Source of the DNA: an uncultured Clostridia bacterium
Lineage (GTDB): Bacteria; Bacillota; Clostridia; TANB77; CAG-508
Reading direction: 5' to 3'
Assembly (NCBI GenBank): GCA_947623285.1
Contig: CANQGP010000001.1
Coordinates: 99,384-163,383 of the forward strand
DNA length: 64,000 nucleotides
Every line of letters starts with the position of its first letter. The stretch's first letter is position 1. This document shows, piece by piece, positions 52,440 through 64,000 of this stretch. The translations under genes were made by a program, and so were the position numbers. Under the pieces are notes generated by a model that did no database searches, had not been told where the DNA came from, and worked only from the letters and a program-made list of their open reading frames with translations.

Positions 52440-52841
52440 TTGAGTAAACTATATGAAGCATATACACAACTGAAAAAAACAGATTCGAAAACAATATACT
52501 TATTTAAAAGTGGCATATTTTTTATCGCATTAAACGAAGATGCCGAATTGCTCTCAAATCTGTTCGATTTAAAAATAAATAATTTAACAACAACAGTAGT
52601 AAAGGCAGGCTTTCCCTGTAACAGCTATGAAAAATATTGCAAACTTTTTAAATCTCATAACTTAACTGTTAAAATTGTTGATATGGAAAGCTTTACAAAA
52701 AGAAACTTCAAAGAATATTCACAAAGCCAGTCACTTGTTGAAATAATAGATAAACTTAATAAAGTAGACCCTAACAATTTGTCAATTACAGAAGCTTACA
52801 AATTTATTGAAGATTTAAAAGAAAAGGTAATAAAAATATGA
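52440..52841 (+). CDS. MutS-domain-I-like DGR accessory protein (MSL type), copy 1
   Basis: 133 aa. IYLFKSGIFFIALNEDAELL...KAGFP aligns to the MutS mismatch-binding domain (LLFYRMGDFYELFYDDA...MAGIP). TTG start 8 nt after GGAGG. The stop overlaps the RT start (ATGA). Confidence 0.6.
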   Translation: MSKLYEAYTQLKKTDSKTIYLFKSGIFFIALNEDAELLSNLFDLKINNLTTTVVKAGFPCNSYEKYCKLFKSHNLTVKIVDMESFTKRNFKEYSQSQSLVEIIDKLNKVDPNNLSITEAYKFIEDLKEKVIKI

Positions 52842-53818
52842 AAAGAAAAGGAAATTTATACCCAGAAATATGCAAATTCGAAAACATATTAGCAGCATAT
52901 AACGAGGTATGTAGAAACACCAGGAACAAAAGAAGAGTAGAAAATTTAAAAGAATATAAATCCGTATATATTTCCAGAGTATATGACACATTAATAAATA
53001 AAAAATACAAGGTAGGCTCTTATAATAAATTCATAATATATGAACCTAAAAAAAGATTGATAGTTAGTCAAAACTCACATGATAAAATAATAAACCACCT
53101 AGTAGCAAGATTCATTTTATATCCGGCGATATTACCATGTCTGCTTGACGTTAATGTAGCAAGTAGAAAAGATATGGGAACCAAAAGAGGTATAGAACTA
53201 GCAAAGGAATTTCATAGAAAATGCAAAGTAAAATATGGAACTTATTACATTTTAAAAGCAGATATAAGCAAATTCTTTGCAAGCATAGACCATGAAAGAT
53301 TAAAAGCAAAATTGGAAAGAAGAATAAAAGATAAAGATGCCTTAAAAATAACTTTTGACATAATAGATAGCAACTCACCTGGGTTATTTATAGGCTCAAT
53401 GACAAACCAAGTATTAGCAATATTTTACCTAAATGATATGGATCACTTTATAAAAGAAAAACTAAAAATAAAATATTACGTTAGATATCAAGATGACTTT
53501 TTATTATTCCACCCTGACAAACAATATTTAAAATACTGCTTAAAAGAAATAGAAAAATTTGTAGAAATGGAAAAATTAAAATTAAATGCTAAAACCAGAA
53601 TTTACAAAAACACAAACAACTTTCTATTCCTTGGTAGAAACCCTAAAGGCAAATACTGCAGATATAGAAATGTAAAAAGAAAACTTAAAGCACGAGCACA
53701 TTTATATGAAGCTGGCCAATTGACATTGGACAGCCTTGCCTCAAGTATTATTTGCTACAAGGGATTATGTGCTCAAAACAAAAACTCTATTGATAAGCTT
53801 TTTAAGAATAGAATTTAA
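52838..53818 (+). CDS. DGR-type reverse transcriptase
   Basis: 326 aa with RT motifs including FIGSMTNQVLAIFYLN (DGR-typical xGxxxSQ-like motif 4) and YVRYQDDFLLF (YxDD). No maturase or endonuclease domains. Confidence 0.85.
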   Translation: MKRKGNLYPEICKFENILAAYNEVCRNTRNKRRVENLKEYKSVYISRVYDTLINKKYKVGSYNKFIIYEPKKRLIVSQNSHDKIINHLVARFILYPAILPCLLDVNVASRKDMGTKRGIELAKEFHRKCKVKYGTYYILKADISKFFASIDHERLKAKLERRIKDKDALKITFDIIDSNSPGLFIGSMTNQVLAIFYLNDMDHFIKEKLKIKYYVRYQDDFLLFHPDKQYLKYCLKEIEKFVEMEKLKLNAKTRIYKNTNNFLFLGRNPKGKYCRYRNVKRKLKARAHLYEAGQLTLDSLASSIICYKGLCAQNKNSIDKLFKNRI

Positions 53819-53876: not shown

Positions 53877-54173
53877 TTAGCTAACTTTTTTTGTTATCTC
53901 TTTTTCTGATAATCCTGTAATATCTGCTATTTCTTCAATTGTCATCCCTCTATCAAGCATCTTCTTGGCAATTTCCATTTTACCCTCTATTCTGCCTTTT
54001 TTCTCGCCTTTCTTTTCTCCTTTTAAGTAAGCTCCTCTTTTATTCATCATTTCATCAAATCTAGCTTTTTCTTTTAACCATAACATTCTCTTAGCTTGTT
54101 CATTTGCTACTGCTTCTTCACGTAACTTTTCTGCTCTTGCTATTTTTTCATTTTCTTTTACAGCCATTTCCAA
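53877..54173 (-). pseudogene. 3' fragment of an Rpn/YhgA-like gene
   Basis: The 98-aa ORF is almost identical to the C-terminus of ORF 57120..57950 (MAVKENEKIARAEKLREEAVANEQ...), with an 8-aa EKKGRIEG insertion. The N-terminal nuclease domain is absent. Confidence 0.7.
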
Positions 54174-54430: not shown

Positions 54431-55288
54431 TTACAATTTTTCTATTTCCTCTTTTGTTAGTTCTGTTAACTCTTCAATTTCCTTAACAGACATACCTTTT
54501 GCTTTCATTTTTTTTGCTATTTGCTTTTGTTTGTTTTTTTCACCTTCAGCACGTCCTTCTTCAGTTGCTATTTCTAAATCCATCTCTCGGTCAAATCTTA
54601 TTCTATCTTTTATTCGCAAAATTTCTCTTGTTTCTGGGTCTGCTAATGCTTCTTTCAATAATTTTTCTGCTTTTGCTACTTTATCATTTTCTTCAATCGC
54701 CATTTCAAGTTCCTCCTTATTTTCTTGGCTTATGAAATATAACCATTGAGATAGTTTTTTCTTGTCTTTTTTATTTTGTTTTAAAAATTTTGGTAGTTGT
54801 ATAAAATACATTTGTATTTTATCTGACATTACTGTTTTATCACTGTCCCATCTAAATCTTGCACTATCTATGTAATTATTTCTTCCAGCTATATTGTATG
54901 ATAATATACTAACTATTATTACTTCTTTGTTGTTTTTATACCCCTCGCCTTCTTTCATTTCTTCTGTATATAAATTCGAAGCATAATATATATCTCTATC
55001 CTCCATGTCTTTTTTGTCTACTATTTGCATTTCAACATCTACTATTTTGTGTTCATCTATTGTTACTTTTAAGTCTATTCTTCCACCTTTTGTATCATTA
55101 TACATTTTTTCTAATGTATACTCATTTGTAATATTTATATTATTAATTTTTATATTTAATATTTCTTCTAGCATTTCTTGTAGCATATCTTCATTTCCCT
55201 TAGATGCAAAGATTTTTTGAAATAAAAAATCATTTTGTGGGGTCATTGATTTATCTACCTTATTTTTTTCTAATTGGTTATTGTTCAT
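54431..55288 (-). CDS. Rpn/YhgA-like PD-(D/E)XK recombination-promoting nuclease (putative transposase family), copy 1
   Basis: PQNDFLFQKIFASKGNEDMLQEMLEEIL... plus a C-terminal helical HTH-like tail. The ATG at 55288 lies 7 nt after AGGAGG. Confidence 0.7.
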   Translation of the reverse strand: MNNNQLEKNKVDKSMTPQNDFLFQKIFASKGNEDMLQEMLEEILNIKINNINITNEYTLEKMYNDTKGGRIDLKVTIDEHKIVDVEMQIVDKKDMEDRDIYYASNLYTEEMKEGEGYKNNKEVIIVSILSYNIAGRNNYIDSARFRWDSDKTVMSDKIQMYFIQLPKFLKQNKKDKKKLSQWLYFISQENKEELEMAIEENDKVAKAEKLLKEALADPETREILRIKDRIRFDREMDLEIATEEGRAEGEKNKQKQIAKKMKAKGMSVKEIEELTELTKEEIEKL

Positions 55289-55488
55289 TAAATTCCTCCT
55301 TATTTTAACACTTTTCGTTTTTTTACGCAAGTGTTTAATTTTACTTTGTATGTTTATTAGCACAATTTTCTTACAATTAAATTTTAAAATTTTCTTTGGA
55401 TTTTGTTTCTGAAACGAAACTAATAGATTTTGAATTTTGAAAAAAATAAATCATTTATAATTTTGTCCATTACTTTAAAAGCATTTCC

Positions 55489-55516
55489 ATTATATAACTT
55501 TTTAAATTAATGTCAA
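55489..55516 (-). promoter_or_regulatory. Promoter of Rpn copy 1
   Basis: The minus strand reads TTGACA (55511-55516), a 16-nt spacer, then TATAAT (55489-55494). This is a mirror image of 56920..56947. Confidence 0.55.
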
Positions 55517-55898
55517 TACTTACAATGCAAGAATTCATCGCAAATATTGACATTTTTCGACAAATAAAAAATAGCACTAATTTGTGCTATAAAAACAGTT
55601 ATAAATTAAATTAAGAATAAAATTTAGTTTTGAACCGTCAAGAAATCCTTGACAGTTGAAATTTCTTCTAATTCTTCCTCGTCAAAAATATTTTTTATAT
55701 GTAAGCTAATATTTTGCTTTGTTGTATTAAATAATTCAATCTTTTTTTGAAAAGTGCTAAATAAATATACTCCTGATTAGTAGGAATTATTTTACTAATA
55801 TTGCCTAAAATGTTATAAGCAGAATCTTCTAGGCTCATAGTTGTTACATTTTTATAAGTAATAAAAAATGAATATTATTAATAAGAGAAATAAAATGT

Positions 55899-56310
55899 TT
55901 GCAAAAATTGGTAAAAAATGGTATAAATATTGTGGGTATGATTGACACTGTTTGCAATGGCTTCTGGTTAGCTTCTCCTTCAGCCAACAACACTAACAAT
56001 GTTATGCTTGTGAACTATAACGGCAATGTCAGCAATAACAACTATAACAATAACAATTATAGCTTGCGCCCCGTAGCTTCCAAAAAACTGTGGTTGCATT
56101 GAACTAAGGTAATGCAAGAGAAGTTTTGGAGGAAACAAATCATATCCATTAATGGATTTATAAGATAAAAATACAAAAAATTATTGACAATTTTTATAAG
56201 TCTAATTATAAAATAAAAATAGATAATCAAGCTTGTTAGTAAAATTAATATTTGAAAGGAAGTTTAATTTAGGACTGTTTTTAATAGTACTTGGGATAGT
56301 GCTATTTTTT
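55899..56310 (+). repeat. DGR TR-like cassette A1 (promoter, 124-nt TR at 55953..56076, conserved spacer, terminator)
   Basis: TTGCAA-17-TATAAA promoter (55899-55927). The 124-nt segment is colinear with the VR and rich in AAC/AAT codons. Hairpin TTGCATT/AATGCAA at 56094-56117. Terminal hairpin plus T-run at ~56284-56310. Confidence 0.75.
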
Positions 56311-56460
56311 ATTGTATGGAAGAAAAATAGCTAGATTTTTAAATATACAACAATGTTATTTTTTCTATATTTATGCGATTATAAAGCAACTTATACATGT
56401 ATCCAAGTAAATTTTATAAATAATAAAAAATGAATGTTATTAATAAGTGGAATAAATTGT

Positions 56461-56872
56461 TTGCAAATATTGGTAAAAAATGGTATAAATATTGTGGGTA
56501 TGATTGACACTGTTTGCAATGGCTTCTGGTTAGCTTCTCCTTCTGCCAACAACACCGACAATGTTATGCGTGTGAACTATAACGGCAATGTCAACAATAA
56601 CAACTATAACAATACCAACTATAGCTTGCGCCCCGTAGCTTCCAAAAAACTGTGGTTGCATTGAACCAAGGTAATGCAAGAGAAGTTTTGGAGGAAACAA
56701 ATCATATCCGTTAATGGATTTGTAAGATAAAAATACAAAGAATTTTATTGATGATTCTTACAAGTCTAATTATAAAATAAAAATAGATAATCAAGCTTGT
56801 TAGTAAAATTAATATTTGAAAGGAAGTTTGATTTACAACTGTTTTTATAGCACAAATTAGTGCTATTTTTAT
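56461..56872 (+). repeat. DGR TR-like cassette A2 (TR at 56515..56638), best match to the VR
   Basis: Same architecture as A1. By-eye alignment to the VR gives 16 differences, 13 of them at TR adenines. Terminator ATAGCAC..GTGCTAT-T5 at ~56847-56870. Confidence 0.75.
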
Positions 56873-56919
56873 TTGTCAAAAAATGTCAATATTTGCGATG
56901 AATTATTGCATTGTAAGTA

Positions 56920-56947
56920 TTGACATTAATTTAAAAAGTTATATAAT
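56920..56947 (+). promoter_or_regulatory. Promoter of Rpn copy 2
   Basis: TTGACA, a 16-nt spacer, then TATAAT, followed by a ~165-nt leader. Confidence 0.55.
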
Positions 56948-57119
56948 GGAATTGCTTTTAGAGTTAATAGACAAAATTAAAATGATTTATTTTTTTCAAA
57001 ATTCAAAAGTTCCGAATCAGGAACGAATATCCAAAAAAATTAATAATTTTACGAAAGTTTTTATTTATTTAGCACTTGAAAGATAAGCTAAAAATATGTT
57101 AAAATAAAGGAGATATATA

Positions 57120-57950
57120 TTGGAAAAATATAACATACATGAGACACCACAAGATGATTATCTATTTCAAAGAATATTTGCATCAAAGGGAAATGAAGAT
57201 ATGCTAGCGGAAATATTAGAAGATTTGCTAGACATAAAAATAAATAATATAGAAATAAAAAATGAATTTACACTAGAAAAAATTTATCAAGAAGAAAAAA
57301 GTTCAAGAATAGATATAAAAGTGGTGGCAGATAATAGAATAATAGATATAGAAATGCAGATAAAGAATGAATATAATATGAAGGATAGGAGCTTATATTA
57401 TGGAGCTGCATTATATCATGAAGCATTAGAAGAAGGAATAGATTATAAAGATAGCAAAGAGGTTATAGTAATAAGTATATTATCATTTAACTTATTTAAA
57501 AATGGAAACTACCTGGTTAGAGGGAGAATAATGCGAGATGATATAAAAGATGAAGTAATAACAGATAAACTAAGTTTTTATTACATACAATTACCAAAAT
57601 TTCTAAAACAAAAAGATAAAAAAAGAAAGAAATTGGCTCAATGGTTATATTTTATAAGCCAAAGAGATAAGGGGGAATTGGAAATGGCTGTAAAAGAAAA
57701 TGAAAAGATAGCAAGGGCAGAAAAATTACGTGAAGAAGCAGTAGCAAATGAACAAGCTAAGAGAATGTTATGGTTAAAAGAAAAGGCTAGATTTGATGAA
57801 ATGATGAATAAAAGAGGAGCTTACTTAAAAGGAGAAAAGAAAGGTAAAATGGAAATTGCCAAGAAGATGCTTGATAGAGGGATGACAATTGAAGAAATAG
57901 CAGATATTACAGGATTATCAAAAAAAGAGATAACAAAAAAAGTCAGCTAA
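57120..57950 (+). CDS. Rpn/YhgA-like PD-(D/E)XK recombination-promoting nuclease, copy 2
   Basis: 276 aa with PQDDYLFQRIFASKGNEDMLAEILEDLL.... TTG start 6 nt after AAGGAG. Paralogue of 54431..55288. Confidence 0.7.
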   Translation: MEKYNIHETPQDDYLFQRIFASKGNEDMLAEILEDLLDIKINNIEIKNEFTLEKIYQEEKSSRIDIKVVADNRIIDIEMQIKNEYNMKDRSLYYGAALYHEALEEGIDYKDSKEVIVISILSFNLFKNGNYLVRGRIMRDDIKDEVITDKLSFYYIQLPKFLKQKDKKRKKLAQWLYFISQRDKGELEMAVKENEKIARAEKLREEAVANEQAKRMLWLKEKARFDEMMNKRGAYLKGEKKGKMEIAKKMLDRGMTIEEIADITGLSKKEITKKVS

Positions 57951-58030: not shown

Positions 58031-58096
58031 CTACTAACTTAATAAAAAAGTGAGTAACTTTACACAAACTTTCCGATATTTTCACATTTTCTATAC

Positions 58097-58505
58097 AATA
58101 AAAAATAGTACTCATTTCAAGTACTATTAAAAACAGTTGTAAATCAAACTTCCCTTCAAATATTAATTTTACTAACAAGCTTGATTATCTATTTTCATTT
58201 TATAATTAGACTTATAATAACTATCAGTAAAAATATTTGTATTTTATCTTAAATAATTTTTTATAAATCCAATTAAAGGACATAATTTGTTTCCTCCAAA
58301 ACTTCTCTTGCATTACCTTAGTTCAATGCAACCACAGTTTTTTGGAAGCTACGGGGCGCAAGCTAAGGTTGTTATTGTTATAGTTGTTACGGTTGATATT
58401 GCCGTTATAGTTCACATTCATAACCCAGTCAGTGTTATCAGCGGAAGGAGAAGCTAACCAGAAGCCAACGCAAACAGTGTCAATTATGCCCTTATTATTT
58501 TTATA
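58097..58505 (-). repeat. DGR TR-like cassette B1 (TR at 58349..58472)
   Basis: Reverse complement of the A-type unit: TR, conserved spacer, and a terminal hairpin at 58104-58128. It keeps the TATAAA -10 (58500-58505) but has no clear -35. Confidence 0.7.
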
Positions 58506-58511
58506 TTAAAA

Positions 58512-58910
58512 TTTTAAAAATAGCACTGATTAGTGCTATTAAAAACAGTCATAAACCAAACTTCCCTTCAAATATTAATTTTACTAACAAACTTGATTAT
58601 CTATTTTTATTTTATAATTAGACTTATAATAACTATCAGTAAAAATCTTTGCATTTTATTTTTATAAATCGAATTAAAGGACATAATTTGTTTCCATCCA
58701 AAACTTCTCTTACATTACCTTAGTTCAATGCAACCACAGTTTTTTGGAAGCTACGGGGCGCAAGCTAATGTTGTTATTGTTATAGTTGTTGTTGCCGACA
58801 TAGCCGTTATAGTTCACATTCATAACATTGTTAGTGCCGTTAGCGGAAGGAGAAGCTAACCAGAAGCCCCAGCAAACAGTTTCAATTATACCCATTTTTT
58901 ATATTATTTT
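58512..58910 (-). repeat. DGR TR-like cassette B2 (TR at 58751..58874)
   Basis: Same unit. The terminator hairpin at 58520-58539 abuts cassette B1. Confidence 0.7.
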
Positions 58911-59004
58911 TCTTTTGTATTCAAAACTAATTAAGTACACTTTATAATATCTATCTCAAATTTTTTTAGTTATTTTGTGAATATAATCTTGTGGTTAATT
59001 TTTA

Positions 59005-59345
59005 TAAATAAAAATAGCACTAGTTTTCGTGCTATAAAAACATTTATAAATCAAATTTCCTTTCAAATATTAATTTTACTAACAAATTTGACTATATGTT
59101 TTTATTTTATAAATAAATTATTTTCAAATTTATTTAAAAGACATGACTTGTTTCCATCCAAAACTTCTCTTGCATTACCTTAGTTCAATGCAACCACAGT
59201 TTTTTGGAAGCTACGGGGCACAAGCTAAGATTGTTATTGTTATAGTTCGTATTGTTGACATTGCCGTTATAGTTCACATACATAACATTGTTAGTGTTGT
59301 TAGCGGAAGGAGAAGCTAACCAGAAGCCATTGCAAGCAATTTCAG
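59005..59345 (-). repeat. DGR TR-like cassette B3 (TR at 59211..59334), in the canonical position just downstream of avd
   Basis: Same unit, but the distal spacer is more diverged. It is the only copy whose 3' GC-rich end reads GCTTGTGCCCCGTAG (T instead of C) rather than the VR sequence. Confidence 0.7.
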
Positions 59346-59474
59346 CCATGCCTTAATTATTTTATTAACAAATGAAATTTATTTGAGTTGTTATCAACCG
59401 GAAGGATTTCCGATTACTTAACATTTTCGATAGTCTCATTTAAAAATATTCCATTTAATTTAAATAATTGCCTT

Positions 59475-59894
59475 TTATCCTTCTACTGTTACTTTATATC
59501 CTGATGTTTTCTTTACCTCAGTAGCATCAAATTGTTTAGTAGATTTCCCTGCTTTTAATTTTTTCATCCAACCAGTTGTATATTTAGTTATATCATCCAA
59601 TCTTTGTGCTAATTTAAAATATTTCTTTTCCGTTATTAATTTTTTATCATAACTTAAATTCACTAAAAAATCTATAACCTTAACTTTTGCTATCATTTTT
59701 AATATTAATTTTACTTTATATTCTCTTTCTTCAGTAGCATTAGCTTCATATGAAGTCTCCAATAAATCAAATGTATTAGTCCTTATTCTATGTTTTATTT
59801 CAATATCTTTTTTAGGATAATTTTCAAGTTCTTTATCTATTACTAAAATAAAATCTCTAATAAATTGAATAACTCTAAACTTATCTTCTCTCAT
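59475..59894 (-). CDS. avd: DGR accessory variability determinant (Avd, four-helix-bundle protein)
   Basis: 139 aa, basic and all-helical (FRVIQFIRDFILVIDKELENYPKKD...KYFKLAQRLDDITKYTTGWMKKL). It lies between the target gene and the TR. Confidence 0.7.
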   Translation of the reverse strand: MREDKFRVIQFIRDFILVIDKELENYPKKDIEIKHRIRTNTFDLLETSYEANATEEREYKVKLILKMIAKVKVIDFLVNLSYDKKLITEKKYFKLAQRLDDITKYTTGWMKKLKAGKSTKQFDATEVKKTSGYKVTVEG

Positions 59895-59900
59895 TTTACT

Positions 59901-60335
59901 TTAACCTTCCTTTATGACTTTTTCAATATTTAATATTTTTTTATTAAAATCTTTTTCATACATGTTTTTCATCAAATATTCATTTATCATATCAATTTTT
60001 CTTTTGCAGTTTACATATCTCCTTGCTTTTTGGTCAAATCTTTCATATCTATTTAAATTTCTATAATTTACTTTATCTTCAACATCATAATTATTTCTTC
60101 TATCAATCGTTATATAATTTATTTTATTATCCTCCAATCGTCTCATCACTTTTGAAATAGCATTAATAGGGAATCCACATTCTACAATATTATCATCTAT
60201 GTTTTTCACTTTATAATCAAAAAAATATGATAAAATATATGCATCTTTTCCAAAAACATGATAAAACCCTCCCATTCTAAACAAACATATATCTTTTGTA
60301 TGAATTTGTTTTATGCTTTTTATCATTTCATTCAT
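59901..60335 (-). CDS. MutS-domain-I-like DGR accessory protein (MSL type), copy 2
   Basis: 144 aa. ICLFRMGGFYHVFGKDAYIL...ECGFP aligns to MutS domain I. It ends 6 nt before the avd start. Confidence 0.6.
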   Translation of the reverse strand: MNEMIKSIKQIHTKDICLFRMGGFYHVFGKDAYILSYFFDYKVKNIDDNIVECGFPINAISKVMRRLEDNKINYITIDRRNNYDVEDKVNYRNLNRYERFDQKARRYVNCKRKIDMINEYLMKNMYEKDFNKKILNIEKVIKEG

Positions 60336-60503: not shown

Positions 60504-60541
60504 AAAAAAGCGAGTACCGGACCACCGGCCCGGTGAACTCG
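60504..60541 (-). terminator. GC-rich terminator hairpin after the DGR target gene
   Basis: The minus strand reads GCGAGTTCACCGGGCCGGTGGTCCGGTACTCGC followed by T6. It is strikingly GC-rich for this genome. Confidence 0.6.
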
Positions 60542-60578: not shown

Positions 60579-63500
60579 TTAGCTAATATTCCATTTGTTA
60601 TTTGAACCCTTTGTGATTGAAACAGATTCGGGAAGATAAACTACGGGGCGCAAGCTATAGTTGGTATTGTTATAGGTGCTAGTGTTGACACTGCCGCCAT
60701 AGCCCACACGCATAACACTGCTAGCGTAGTTAGCAGAAGGAGAAGCTAACCAGAAGCCATAGCAATTATTCCAAGCGGAATTCGTGCTAGGATGAGGATA
60801 ATAAAGAGTATTCTTCCAACCCGCATATTTCTGTATAACTGAACCATCTATATAAGTTGAAGTTCCTTTATCTGATGTACTTATAAAATATCCGGTGGTC
60901 GTTGGGGTTGCATTGCAATATATCTTCTCTGTTGGATATTTAGCATTCCAACTTGCACACCATAATTCAATCGTCGGACTTCCTATTGCCTGTGCTCCTT
61001 TAGATTTTAGATCTGATGTTACAAATTGATTTGTCCATACACTTGTATCTAATAATTCTGCTACTGCTTTTGTATTATTTTGTGATTGACTCTTTGCTTT
61101 ATCGTAATATGCTCTTGTGAAGAATCTATCCGCTAAGGTTGTAGAAGTAATTACATCCGCTATTGAATTACGTTTCCATCCACTTCCTGACCAATACACA
61201 TTATATGTATTACCTTTCGTCATACTTGTTCCTGATGGAAGATTAGAATTATTCATATAATCTCCTGCTATTAAATATTTGTCTCCTCCATTTGCGTAGA
61301 ATAATTTCCAATCTGTTATTCCTCCGCATGAATAATTTGTATCTCCTCCAAATTCTTCAGGGTCTGAAGGTTTAACCGCAGTTTCCCAAACTGCATACAA
61401 TGTCAAATCTTTTTCTTCTGATACACTAATTTCATCTCCTGCTGAACTCTTTGGATATGTTGGATTTGAACTTTGCCCTGAACTTGTACTCCATCCAAGG
61501 AAGTTAAATCCTTCTTTTGTCGGTTCTGTTGTTGTTAATTTTGGCTTATCGTATTCGATACTTGTGCCACTATAGTTTTTATATGCTGTTCCCTCGGAAT
61601 CAGGAATTGTATTACTAGTTCCATTTTTTCCGTCTTGCAAATCATATTTGATTTTTACTGTTTTCTGATATGTCTGATAGTACTCTGCACTTTCTTTGAC
61701 TTGGCCTATTGAAGCGTTATTGTCATATGATTTTTCGGCTTTTGCAGAAGTTCCATCAGATGCCCAGTATCTATTATTATATCCACTTGGTTTTTGAGTA
61801 TCTCCTGGTTGTCCAAGGTTTACATTTTTTGGATATTGTGGGCTATTTCCTACTGATTTTATTGTGAATGTTAAATCATCCATTGTTGCAGATTGCCATA
61901 CATGTCTTGTTATTTTCTCTGTTTTTGTATGTCTTGCATAATATGTTATATATGGATTTGTTTCACCATTTGCTAAATTAATTTTTGTTTCTTCATATCC
62001 ATCTGATGTTTTTACCCATCCGTCGAATGTCCATGCTCCCGTATCTGAAGGTGTTTTTATTGTGCTTCCAGATGGTGCATTCGTTATTGCTAATCCCTTT
62101 GTTTCTTCATTAGCACGAAGTAATGCTTGTGCATTTACTTTTTGGGTTGAATTGTCTCCAAATGTATATGTTATTTCTACTGGATATGTATAAACCATGT
62201 GATATGTTGTGTCATTAAATAGTTCTTCAGTTGGTTCTCCACCTAATGCTACATCTGGGTCTGCTGTTATAGCAGAGGTGCTCTTTAGCCATCCTTTAGG
62301 TGTTGCTGTTACATTTTTTGAGCTATTTATTGATGCACTTACTGTATCACTTGCACTTCCTCCTAAGTTTGGTTTTACTCCTGTTGCTTCACCTTTGTAG
62401 TTTCCTACAACTGTTGTATTTCCTACCTGACTTTCGGTGTTTTTATATGTTACTTTTGTTATTTTTATATCTTTCTTATATACTGCATAATACGTTGTTC
62501 CTAGTTGTACTGTAGGAGTTACTGGATCTGAACCTGTTTCTACATTTGTTACTCCCACATAAGGTATTCCATCTTTTCCTGTACTATTTGAAACTGCTAG
62601 TGGAACTGTTATTTTTTCATCATCTTCTATTTTTCCTGCATAGTTCATTTTTGCTCCTACAGAAGTTGTTGTTCCTGCGCTAGAAGGTTCTCCATTATAT
62701 CTAAATGTTATTGTTTGTGTTGATTCATATAATGCATAATATTTTGCATCTTCTAATGCTTCTATTTCTTTATCATTTGCTGTAATTGTATCTGGTGTTG
62801 GGTCATCTTTATCTGTTTCTGCAGCCCATCCTCTTGATGTATAATTCGTATTTGCTGTTGGGGCATGTCCTATGCTTTTCTTAAATGCTACTGTCGTATT
62901 ATCATATTTTTTATATGCTGGACCTGTCAATGGTTCCATTGTTGCACTATCTCCATCTTGTGTACCGTTGTAAATGACTCTAGTTACTGTTACTTGCTTA
63001 CTATATAATGCATAGTAATCTATATCAGTTGCTGGAGAAGCTGGTGCTTTATTTGGATGTTGTGCTGAAGGCTCTAAATCTTTTTCTGCCTCTAGTACCC
63101 ATCCTTGGAACTCCCATGTTGCATCTTCTGTATCTGTTGGTGCTTGTAGAGTTGCACCTGTTTGAGTATTTTTATAATCTATCGTTTTATTAGGATTTTC
63201 TACTTGTGTTTTACCTTTATAATGGTATGTTACGGTTATTCCTTTTTGATATACCATATAGTAGTTATAAGCTGCTGCTTCTGCATCTAATTCTATTTCT
63301 GCTTTATTTCCTTTTATTTCAACAAATGCGTCAGTTACAGCTGCATCTGCTTGGTTTGACCAACCTTTTGCTGTAAATCCATCTTCTAATCCTACTGTAG
63401 GTGTTGTATCTCCTGTTTGTAGGTCTACTTTAGGTTTTACTAAACTGTCGTCACTGTAACTTCTATATGCTGTTGCATTTATAACCTCTAATGATTTATT

Positions 63501-64000
63501 TAAGTAAACTGTTCTGTTTACTGTTAAGTCTTTCTTAAATGTTGCTGTTAATGTATCACTTTTATCTGTAACACCTACTGCTGGGTCTACTATTGAGCTT
63601 TCGTCTGTCAAGTCATCTGGGTTTGTTGTCCAACCTCTCCATGACCAACCTTTGCTTTCTAATTCTGGTGGAACTGTAGGGTTTTGAATTGATGGGTCTA
63701 ATCCTCCACCTTGATTATTTCCTTCTGAGTCGGTGTATACATCTTGTTGTTTTTGTTCTGTTTGTCCATCTCCTGTTTGTACTTGTGTTGAAATTGAGTG
63801 TTTATATATTGCATAATAATTTGTATCTTGTAATATTTGTGCATCTCCATTATTTTCAACATCTGGTTTTTGTACATCTGCTCCACTTTGTAAGTTTTTC
63901 AAAAACCAACCAACTGGCTCTGCTGTTTCTCCATCTATTGTTGCATTATCTGCTTTTCCTAAGTTTATTGTTGCTGGCTGTGGCTTATATGTTTGAGATG
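60579..64000 (-). CDS. DGR target: large surface protein with Listeria-Bacteroides (InlB B-repeat / Flg_new) repeats and a C-terminal variable ligand-binding module; 5' end outside the window
   Basis: The frame stays open to the right edge, so the M at 63902 is a TTG artefact. At least 8 repeats end in (G/R)W...D, and the last reads EGFNFLGWSTSSG...DLTLYAVWE. The C-terminus is NCYGFWLASPSANYASSVMRVGYGGSVNTSTYNNTNYSLRPVVYL. Confidence 0.8.
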   Translation of the reverse strand, partial: SQTYKPQPATINLGKADNATIDGETAEPVGWFLKNLQSGADVQKPDVENNGDAQILQDTNYYAIYKHSISTQVQTGDGQTEQKQQDVYTDSEGNNQGGGLDPSIQNPTVPPELESKGWSWRGWTTNPDDLTDESSIVDPAVGVTDKSDTLTATFKKDLTVNRTVYLNKSLEVINATAYRSYSDDSLVKPKVDLQTGDTTPTVGLEDGFTAKGWSNQADAAVTDAFVEIKGNKAEIELDAEAAAYNYYMVYQKGITVTYHYKGKTQVENPNKTIDYKNTQTGATLQAPTDTEDATWEFQGWVLEAEKDLEPSAQHPNKAPASPATDIDYYALYSKQVTVTRVIYNGTQDGDSATMEPLTGPAYKKYDNTTVAFKKSIGHAPTANTNYTSRGWAAETDKDDPTPDTITANDKEIEALEDAKYYALYESTQTITFRYNGEPSSAGTTTSVGAKMNYAGKIEDDEKITVPLAVSNSTGKDGIPYVGVTNVETGSDPVTPTVQLGTTYYAVYKKDIKITKVTYKNTESQVGNTTVVGNYKGEATGVKPNLGGSASDTVSASINSSKNVTATPKGWLKSTSAITADPDVALGGEPTEELFNDTTYHMVYTYPVEITYTFGDNSTQKVNAQALLRANEETKGLAITNAPSGSTIKTPSDTGAWTFDGWVKTSDGYEETKINLANGETNPYITYYARHTKTEKITRHVWQSATMDDLTFTIKSVGNSPQYPKNVNLGQPGDTQKPSGYNNRYWASDGTSAKAEKSYDNNASIGQVKESAEYYQTYQKTVKIKYDLQDGKNGTSNTIPDSEGTAYKNYSGTSIEYDKPKLTTTEPTKEGFNFLGWSTSSGQSSNPTYPKSSAGDEISVSEEKDLTLYAVWETAVKPSDPEEFGGDTNYSCGGITDWKLFYANGGDKYLIAGDYMNNSNLPSGTSMTKGNTYNVYWSGSGWKRNSIADVITSTTLADRFFTRAYYDKAKSQSQNNTKAVAELLDTSVWTNQFVTSDLKSKGAQAIGSPTIELWCASWNAKYPTEKIYCNATPTTTGYFISTSDKGTSTYIDGSVIQKYAGWKNTLYYPHPSTNSAWNNCYGFWLASPSANYASSVMRVGYGGSVNTSTYNNTNYSLRPVVYLPESVSITKGSNNKWNIS
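60641..60764 (-). repeat. DGR variable repeat (VR), 124 nt, ending in the GC-rich IMH-like GCTTGCGCCCCGTAG
   Basis: Colinear with the five TR segments. Homology stops exactly after CCCCGTAG. Most differences from the TRs fall where the TR has A. Confidence 0.8.

Follow-up and report, generated by a model that had tools for sequence, protein, structure and literature searches.

We found that the 64,000-nt stretch of contig CANQGP010000001.1 analysed here (positions 99,384 to 163,383, from an uncultured Clostridia bacterium; hereafter, the window) carries a diversity-generating retroelement (DGR) in which five template repeats (TRs), each within its own predicted RNA gene, would serve one variable region (VR) at the 3' end of a giant surface-protein gene. 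Very probably, this is an active chromosomal DGR of the Avd plus MutS-like kind, in which a multi-template array feeds the single VR through homing that is anchored at the 3' end and often partial. The identity and number of the cassettes, the matches between cassettes and VR tracts, the restriction of variation to the VR in otherwise identical DNA and the covariation in the cassette RNA were observed directly. The VR and the cassettes are located as follows.

60641..60765, minus strand: the VR, encoding C-Y-G-F-W-L-A-S-P...S-L-R-P-V of the target protein.
55899..56312, plus strand: predicted cassette A1 RNA gene, with the TR at 55952-56076, a promoter (TTGCAA 55899-55904 / TATAAA 55922-55927) and a leader at 55934-55943.
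56461..56875, plus strand: predicted cassette A2 RNA gene, with the TR at 56514-56638, a promoter (TTGCAA 56461-56466 / TG-TATAAA 56484-56489), a leader at 56496-56505 pairing with 56700-56709, and a terminator at 56847-56866; assigned donor of the 3' tract of the window VR.
58095..58500, minus strand: predicted cassette B1 RNA gene, with the TR at 58349-58473; assigned donor of the VR 3' tract in contig L008.
58510..58900, minus strand: predicted cassette B2 RNA gene, with the TR at 58751-58875; assigned donor of the VR 3' tract in contigs L009 and L010.
58990..59360, minus strand: predicted cassette B3 RNA gene, with the TR at 59211-59335, adjoining avd, with a weak promoter of its own and a GTGCCCC end.

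Two end motifs had been named in a preliminary description of the stretch. Each has six matches in the window where chance would give 0.00-0.01, namely in A1, A2, B1, B2, B3 and the VR, and repeat finding placed the five copies in register with the VR. No copy of either motif was found in the 64-kb window beyond these six. The 5' homology GGCTTCTGGTTAGCTTCTCC is the same in all cassettes, as is the GC-rich 3' end GCTTGCGCCCCGTAG save for one base in B3, which is, as described previously, the only copy with an altered end resembling the initiation of mutagenic homing (IMH) site. This C-to-T change at window position 59220 (TR position 116), if copied, would turn the near-invariant Arg of LRPVV into Cys, which may be a reason why B3 is unseen as a 3' donor; no VR allele carries it. 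Additionally, the cassettes differ at non-adenine codons (for example Leu, Arg, Asn or Tyr at codon 19, Trp at codon 16, Gly at codon 13, and Leu, Ile or Tyr at codon 36) and in which codons hold adenines.

The VR was compared with each cassette over 124 nt (60641-60764) without gaps. This comparison reproduced exactly the counts that the preliminary description had made by eye, namely 16 differences to A2 (13 at template adenines and 3 elsewhere), 19 to A1 (15 and 4) and 22 to B3 (14 and 8), and B1 and B2, which had been called worse, showed 26 (14 and 12) and 25 (15 and 10) differences, respectively. Over VR positions 45-125, the mismatches at template bases other than adenine (non-A mismatches) numbered 0 for A2, 3 for A1, 5 for B2, 6 for B1 and 7 for B3. 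Thus, from codon 17 to the 3' end the VR departs from A2 at adenines only, as proposed, and it has CGT at codon 19 and ACC-AAC-TAT at codons 34-36 in common with A2 alone. A2 is the sole cassette compatible with this tract, which bears out the earlier suggestion of a donor about 4 kb away on the opposite strand. The three non-A mismatches between the VR and A2 do cluster in codons 11-15, at window positions 60732, 60723 and 60722 (codons 11, 14 and 15); all are transitions, and two are synonymous changes at third positions. The same description had derived these codons from a B3/B2-type sequence; this fits for B3 but not for B2, which reads GCT AAC GGC ACT AAC, with GGC at codon 13. We found codons 11-15 to be compatible with B3 only, or with A1 except at codon 11.

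A minimum-cost path over the five cassettes assigned A2 to positions 45-125 and A1 or B3 to positions 1-44, and the latter assignment cut the non-A mismatches from three to one. The sequence therefore supports an A2-derived tract at 45-125 next to what would be an older tract, compatible with A1 or B3, at 1-44. Taken by itself, the window gives a faint indication of a mosaic 5' part; as far as sequence can decide it, this question is settled by other samples.

Three near-identical contigs from other samples (L008, L009 and L010), obtained by exact look-up of the Avd protein, carry all five cassettes base for base as in the window, while their VRs differ. The L008 VR matches B1 over positions 50-125 with 0 non-A mismatches, versus 4-6 to the other cassettes, and the L009 VR matches B2 over positions 40-125 with 0, versus 4-7. 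L010 begins inside the VR; its 53-nt fragment matches B2 with 0 non-A mismatches versus 1-6, and since it is unlike L009 it represents an independent B2 event. These B1- and B2-derived 3' tracts agree with the suggestion, already made from the window, of successive or partial homing from different templates. In particular, VR positions 1-46 are common to the window and L008, adenine substitutions included, and the 3' donors of the two are different. Upon alignment of the surrounding DNA, the window and L009 showed 23 differences in 9,854 nt, 23 of 23 within the VR, and the window and L008 showed 27 differences in 13,874 nt, 23 of them within the VR.

The other four differences between the window and L008, at 54066, 57707, 57716 and 57725, sit in a 98% inverted repeat formed by a fragment of a gene of the Rpn nuclease family and the 3' end of another Rpn gene, which suggests gene conversion between the Rpn copies.

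A sister strain was represented by loci L012, L013 and L014, which were reached through the 90% cluster of the target protein and exact look-ups of the cluster members; a look-up by RT (reverse transcriptase) sequence yielded no further VR alleles. These loci have the same neighbouring genes as the window and an RT that is 100% identical to that of the window; the module made up of the target end, MSL (MutS domain I-like accessory gene) and Avd differs from that of the window, and the targets are 2638-2640 aa long and have a different C-terminal domain. The template array comprises seven cassettes (T1-T7), 136-142 nt in length, which all lie on the avd strand and are identical in the three samples. 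The L012 VR consists of T3 (positions 1-77) followed by T7 (78-145), and the L013 VR of T5 (1-57) followed by T1 (58-145); each of these 3' tracts is free of non-A mismatches to its donor, and no other cassette has fewer than 6. At 133 nt, the L013 VR has a length that no single cassette matches. T4 accounts for the entire L014 VR with a single non-A mismatch, against 5 for the next-best cassette. When the sister contigs were compared with one another, all 35 differences found over 16.8 kb lay in the VR, as did 28 of the 30 found over 27.9 kb.

When the two strain types were compared (L008 8527-14283 and L012 17203-22164), the flanks were 98-100% identical on both sides and the RT was identical; one module, comprising the last ~260 target codons, MSL, Avd and the template array, differed (75-87% nucleotide identity). 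This looks like a module replacement or an old polymorphism.

As evident from the seven alleles of both strain types, non-A mismatches are 0 in each assigned 3' tract and 0-1 in the 5' tracts. The assigned 3' tracts bear 4-13 adenine substitutions, and the single-donor L014 allele bears 23. Template adenines were replaced by G, T and C in 30, 12 and 6 cases in the window lineage and in 43, 10 and 6 cases in the sister strain. At least three donors of the window lineage (A2, B1 and B2) and five of the sister strain (T1, T3, T4, T5 and T7) have thus left tracts in one VR.

To describe the cassettes as RNA genes, 14 units were aligned: the 12 cassettes of the window and the sister strain and the single units of two relatives. 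Each unit is about 400 nt long and, in all cases, contains the TR between a conserved leader and about 230 nt of conserved non-coding sequence that ends in a hairpin followed by a T run; a terminator scan likewise reported terminator-like hairpins after A2 and B3. The consensus fold comprises eight helices, and the leader GGGUAUGAUU pairs with AAUCAUAUCC downstream of the TR, so that the TR is enclosed. On this structure, 96.6% of the cells in the alignment are paired, and compensatory changes are present in 26 pairs, compared with 11.7 +/- 1.8 in shuffles and at most 5 with slid partners. A promoter of the form TTGnnn-17-TGnTATAAA lies a few bases before the leader in 7 of the 12 cassettes scanned and was not found for the avd-adjacent cassettes and two others, which may be transcribed by read-through. 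No Rfam family matched the cassette RNA, and the conserved spacer motif had no match among viral contigs. In the Bordetella phage, cDNA synthesis requires sequence flanking the TR on both sides and is self-primed from the spacer (PMC6182149); by analogy, each cassette would be a complete template module.

These observations suggest the following mechanism. The template-RNA gene would have given rise to five diverged copies here and to seven copies in the sister strain. Because the copies share their ends, the structured region and the leader pairing that spans the TR, each would be a self-sufficient template for the single RT, which would act in trans whatever the orientation of the cassette. 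The cDNA of any one cassette, mutated at template adenines, would enter the single VR at its 3' end, and the 5' junction would be resolved at a variable internal point of homology; as a consequence, 3' segments would be overwritten more often than 5' segments and the VR would turn into a patchwork of cassette tracts. In the window, A2 would have supplied positions 45-125, and an older A1/B3-type tract would have survived at 1-44, the order of events being that suggested by the alleles. In the Bordetella phage, integration at the 3' end is fixed in the GC-rich IMH, and integration at the 5' end needs at least 8 nt of homology and can use internal cryptic sites (PMC3240598). Several RNAs with the same ends would be predicted to leave a recent-donor tract at the 3' end, older tracts at the 5' end and donors on either strand, as was seen. 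Since the fixed codons vary from cassette to cassette, as does cassette length in the sister strain, the choice of cassette would add diversity beyond adenine mutagenesis. It is reasonably likely that diversification proceeds on two levels: a choice among five to seven template-RNA genes sets the scaffold and loop length, adenine mutation then acts on it, and partial homing stitches the tracts together.

Other explanations were weighed against this mechanism. Homologous recombination might have moved cassette sequence into the VR by gene conversion, or exchanged VR alleles between strains, with the RT adding adenine mutations only. The cassettes and the VR do share identical ends of 20 nt and 15 nt and many internal identities, genes for recombination-promoting nucleases of the Rpn family lie inside the array, and the four differences outside the VR point to gene conversion nearby. 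However, every assigned 3' tract departs from its donor at adenines only, as one RT-mediated event would give, and the cassettes are unchanged in all samples. We therefore regard recombination as an unlikely source of the tracts; going by the adenine signature, each event would have depended on the RT. An alternative of low probability is that the RT switches among cassette RNAs and that a full-length chimeric cDNA replaces the whole VR in one step. For the Bordetella phage DGR, 5' integration has been suggested to involve template switching (PMC3240598), and the cassettes share blocks of identity; yet the 5' tracts of the window and L008 are identical down to their adenine substitutions while the 3' donors differ, which is better explained by the retention of an old tract.

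A division of labour, in which each cassette would serve a separate VR at some other genomic site, with the present one left to A2 alone, is quite improbable. DGRs with several TRs and TR-specific VRs have been reported (PMC6642488), and the genome was examined here over 64 kb. Against this, neither end motif recurs within those 64 kb, the homing ends are identical in all cassettes, and B1 and B2 markers appear in this same VR in other samples. The one-to-one pairing with remote VRs that the preliminary description had named as its own refutation does not hold for A2, B1 and B2, since each of these three has left tracts in this VR. Very improbable, finally, is that A2 templated the whole VR, the other cassettes being inactive duplicates and the differences in codons 11-15 later point mutations or RT errors: these three changes are transitions, two of them synonymous, and 23% of surveyed DGRs show non-A-to-N differences (PMC5758913), but L008 has the same 5' 46 nt including these three bases in front of a B1-derived 3' part, L009 and L010 contain B2-derived tracts, and the cassettes have retained compensatory base pairs and promoters of their own.

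Several points nevertheless weigh against partial homing from a shared template array. No choice of cassette removes the last non-A mismatch from the 5' tract of the window VR, and transcription of each cassette is predicted from sequence features. A1, B3, T2 and T6 are unseen as 3' donors, and the B3 end would change the conserved Arg. Only about seven alleles are available, the samples may come from one study or host, and the search for remote VRs in this genome covered the 64-kb window. The additional alleles are consensus sequences of short-read metagenome assemblies at 6-10x coverage, and a junction inside the VR could be an assembly chimera of co-existing alleles; two contigs break off inside the VR, as expected if the VR is polymorphic within samples. 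The use of several donors is robust to this caveat. The case for mosaicism within a single molecule is less robust, but the 5' tract common to the window and L008 does speak for it.

The DGR genes and the elements around them in the window are as follows.

52440..52841, plus strand: second MutS domain I-like gene (Pfam MutS_I, E=3.8e-9), whose end overlaps the RT start codon (ATGA).
52838..53818, plus strand: reverse transcriptase of 326 aa (Pfam RVT_1, E=9e-13), the sole RT of the locus, convergent with the avd side.
53877..54173, minus strand: copy of an Rpn C-terminal fragment, between the RT and the cassettes.
54431..55363, minus strand: Rpn-family PD-(D/E)XK nuclease/putative transposase gene, between the RT and the cassettes.
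55428..55610 and 56827..57008: left and right arms of a 183-bp inverted repeat around A1-A2, 90-95% complementary.
57120..57950, plus strand: second Rpn-family gene, separating cassette groups A and B.
59475..59894, minus strand: avd (Pfam bAvd, E=3.7e-9; NCBIfam DivGenRetAVD, E=2e-10).
59901..60335, minus strand: MSL (Pfam MutS_I, E=3.1e-9), adjoining avd.

The RT reads IGSMTNQ at the DGR signature site, where DGR RTs usually carry (I/L/V)GxxxSQ. The Avd scores lie under the curated cut-offs (bAvd, 37.5 bits with a cut-off of 40; DivGenRetAVD, 40.9 bits with a cut-off of 80); the gene is at the expected position, and the precomputed annotation likewise lists bAvd. MSL genes are a recognised class of DGR accessory genes (PMC5758913), and in the single-TR relatives examined the MSL is found beside avd only. 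The window element belongs to the DGR family by all defining features tested bar the one-template architecture: it has an RT near a TR/VR pair, differences confined to adenines, a VR at the 3' end with an IMH-like block, Avd and MSL, and its VR varies while the TRs and flanks stay constant; it departs from the canonical arrangement of one TR per VR.

Each arm of the 183-bp repeat consists of a cassette tail and an Rpn upstream region. Perfect TTGACA-16-TATAAT promoters were present at 55489-55516 on the minus strand and 56920-56947 on the plus strand, within a palindrome of about 46 bp upstream of each Rpn gene. In the window, the orientation of A1, A2 and one Rpn gene is opposite to that in the sister strain (L012 21787-23305). 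Ongoing flipping of A1-A2 between the inverted repeats was considered and rejected; the orientation is identical in all four contigs of the window lineage, which therefore give no evidence for it. The Rpn nuclease genes within the array may help to build or rearrange it.

The target gene occupies the right end of the window.

60579..64000, minus strand: 3' part of the target gene, a giant surface-protein open reading frame (ORF) with its stop at 60579 and its other end beyond the window edge.

The full-length target, as found in L008 and L009, has 2663 aa and carries Listeria-Bacteroides (Flg_new) repeats. The homology between the VR and the TRs falls within the final 62 codons of the ORF, and the VR ends 59 nt from the stop codon. 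The TRs and the VR have the GC-rich IMH-like block GCGCCCCGTAG in common and diverge at the very next base. No GC-rich inverted repeat was visible by eye directly after the IMH, in about 35 nt 3' of the VR; such a repeat is present in only 34% of DGRs (PMC5758913). A strong GC-rich hairpin with a T run was observed at about 60510-60540 on the minus strand (scan core, 60516-60534), about 105 nt downstream of the VR end in AT-rich surroundings. It is probably the terminator of the target gene and is too distant to be the equivalent of the Bordetella post-IMH hairpin.

The last 250 aa of the target (window 60582-61331, minus strand), which form the VR-bearing domain, gave a confident predicted model with a pLDDT of 92.6. 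To see whether the domain takes the C-type lectin fold of DGR variable proteins such as Mtd and TvpA, the PDB was searched: Foldseek with this model returned no match at E <= 0.001, phmmer found no match for the domain among PDB sequences, and Pfam recognised in the target only Flg_new, upstream of the domain. A protein search with the same 250 aa did not return its own cluster or the VR variants, only relatives of at most 41% identity. These relatives are proteins of 350-430 aa, some with DUF6273.

More than 2000 relatives of the RT are present in the protein database, and related RTs were found in human gut metagenomes. We examined six other lineages with RT identities of 75-79%. The relatives resolved in detail have a compact layout of target, MSL, avd, a single TR unit and a convergent RT, and carry avd and/or MSL together with a VR-bearing target. 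In five of the six lineages a TR-type unit stands next to the RT, and each locus has a single copy of the conserved spacer motif, compared with five copies in the window and seven in L012; the sixth lineage (L031/L032) gave no match to this motif. In L026-L028 (77% RT identity; L026 9534-14039), four tandem Rpn genes stand between the RT and a single TR; Rpn genes thus recur there without multiplication of the cassette. Scans of the GTDB genome set and JGI metagenomes with the 5' motif gave unrelated single matches only.

Literature searches found engineered use of several TRs and, within the library covered, no description of a TR array whose members converge on a single VR and yield mosaic products. 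Some DGRs are known to have two or more TRs, each TR being described with its own VRs (PMC6642488). Wu et al. attribute non-A substitutions and in-frame indels to RT infidelity, and surveys remark on a loose 5' boundary (PMC5758913). Such substitutions and indels might instead stem from additional templates that went unrecognised, a possibility worth testing: when a VR is compared with its nearest TR alone, differences derived from another cassette are scored as RT errors or indels, and, if the present arrangement is general, hidden templates could explain part of the 'non-canonical' changes in surveys.

Compared with the DGR of Bordetella phage BPP-1 (mtd-avd-TR-brt), the window element is similar in its RT and Avd, the VR at the C-terminal end of the target, the adenine-only substitutions, the GC-rich 3' end common to TR and VR followed by divergence, and the fixed 3' and flexible, homology-dependent 5' junction; by analogy, its template RNA would also need flanks on both sides of the TR. 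The two elements differ in several respects. The one TR of BPP-1 is transcribed together with avd and brt, whereas the template-RNA genes of the present element are separate units, five (or seven) in number, and two of those in the window lie on the opposite strand, at least 4 kb from the VR; the RT is convergent, Rpn genes lie between the RT and the cassettes, there are two MutS-like genes, and no hairpin directly follows the window VR. The MSL DGRs (Architecture D, Wu et al. 2018, PMC5758913) and L024, L023 and L026 have the same gene set and order, and in the latter three the template RNA is homologous to the window cassettes, 3' domain included. Unlike the relatives sampled, which have exactly one TR unit, the window lineage has five to seven units and a second MSL at the RT start. 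Stenotrophomonas sp. SKA14 (two TRs and six VRs; PMC6642488) likewise has more than one template per RT; in contrast to reports of that type, where TRs are paired with their own VRs, several TRs here converge on a single VR and leave segmental mosaics.

DGRs are usually described as one template serving one or more targets, with diversity confined to the adenines of that template; here, several templates serve one target. The reachable sequence space is thereby multiplied by fixed residues, by sets of variable codons and, in the sister strain, by loop lengths. The VR also records its homing history, and its natural alleles reveal the 3'-to-5' polarity of retrohoming. For engineering, the array is an example from nature of multiplexed templates that act in trans on a single site.

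The arrangement further parallels cassette-based antigenic variation and immunoglobulin gene conversion plus hypermutation. In silent-cassette gene conversion, as in Neisseria pilE/pilS, Borrelia vlsE and the chicken immunoglobulin pseudo-V genes, DNA is copied to DNA by recombination. The window element resembles these systems in its array of unexpressed donors near one expression site, its patchwork replacement and its unchanged donors, and the chicken immunoglobulin case additionally combines cassette conversion with hypermutation. Unlike those systems, the tracts here bear an adenine-specific signature of reverse transcription, and the donors appear to be RNA genes, most with a predicted promoter of their own.

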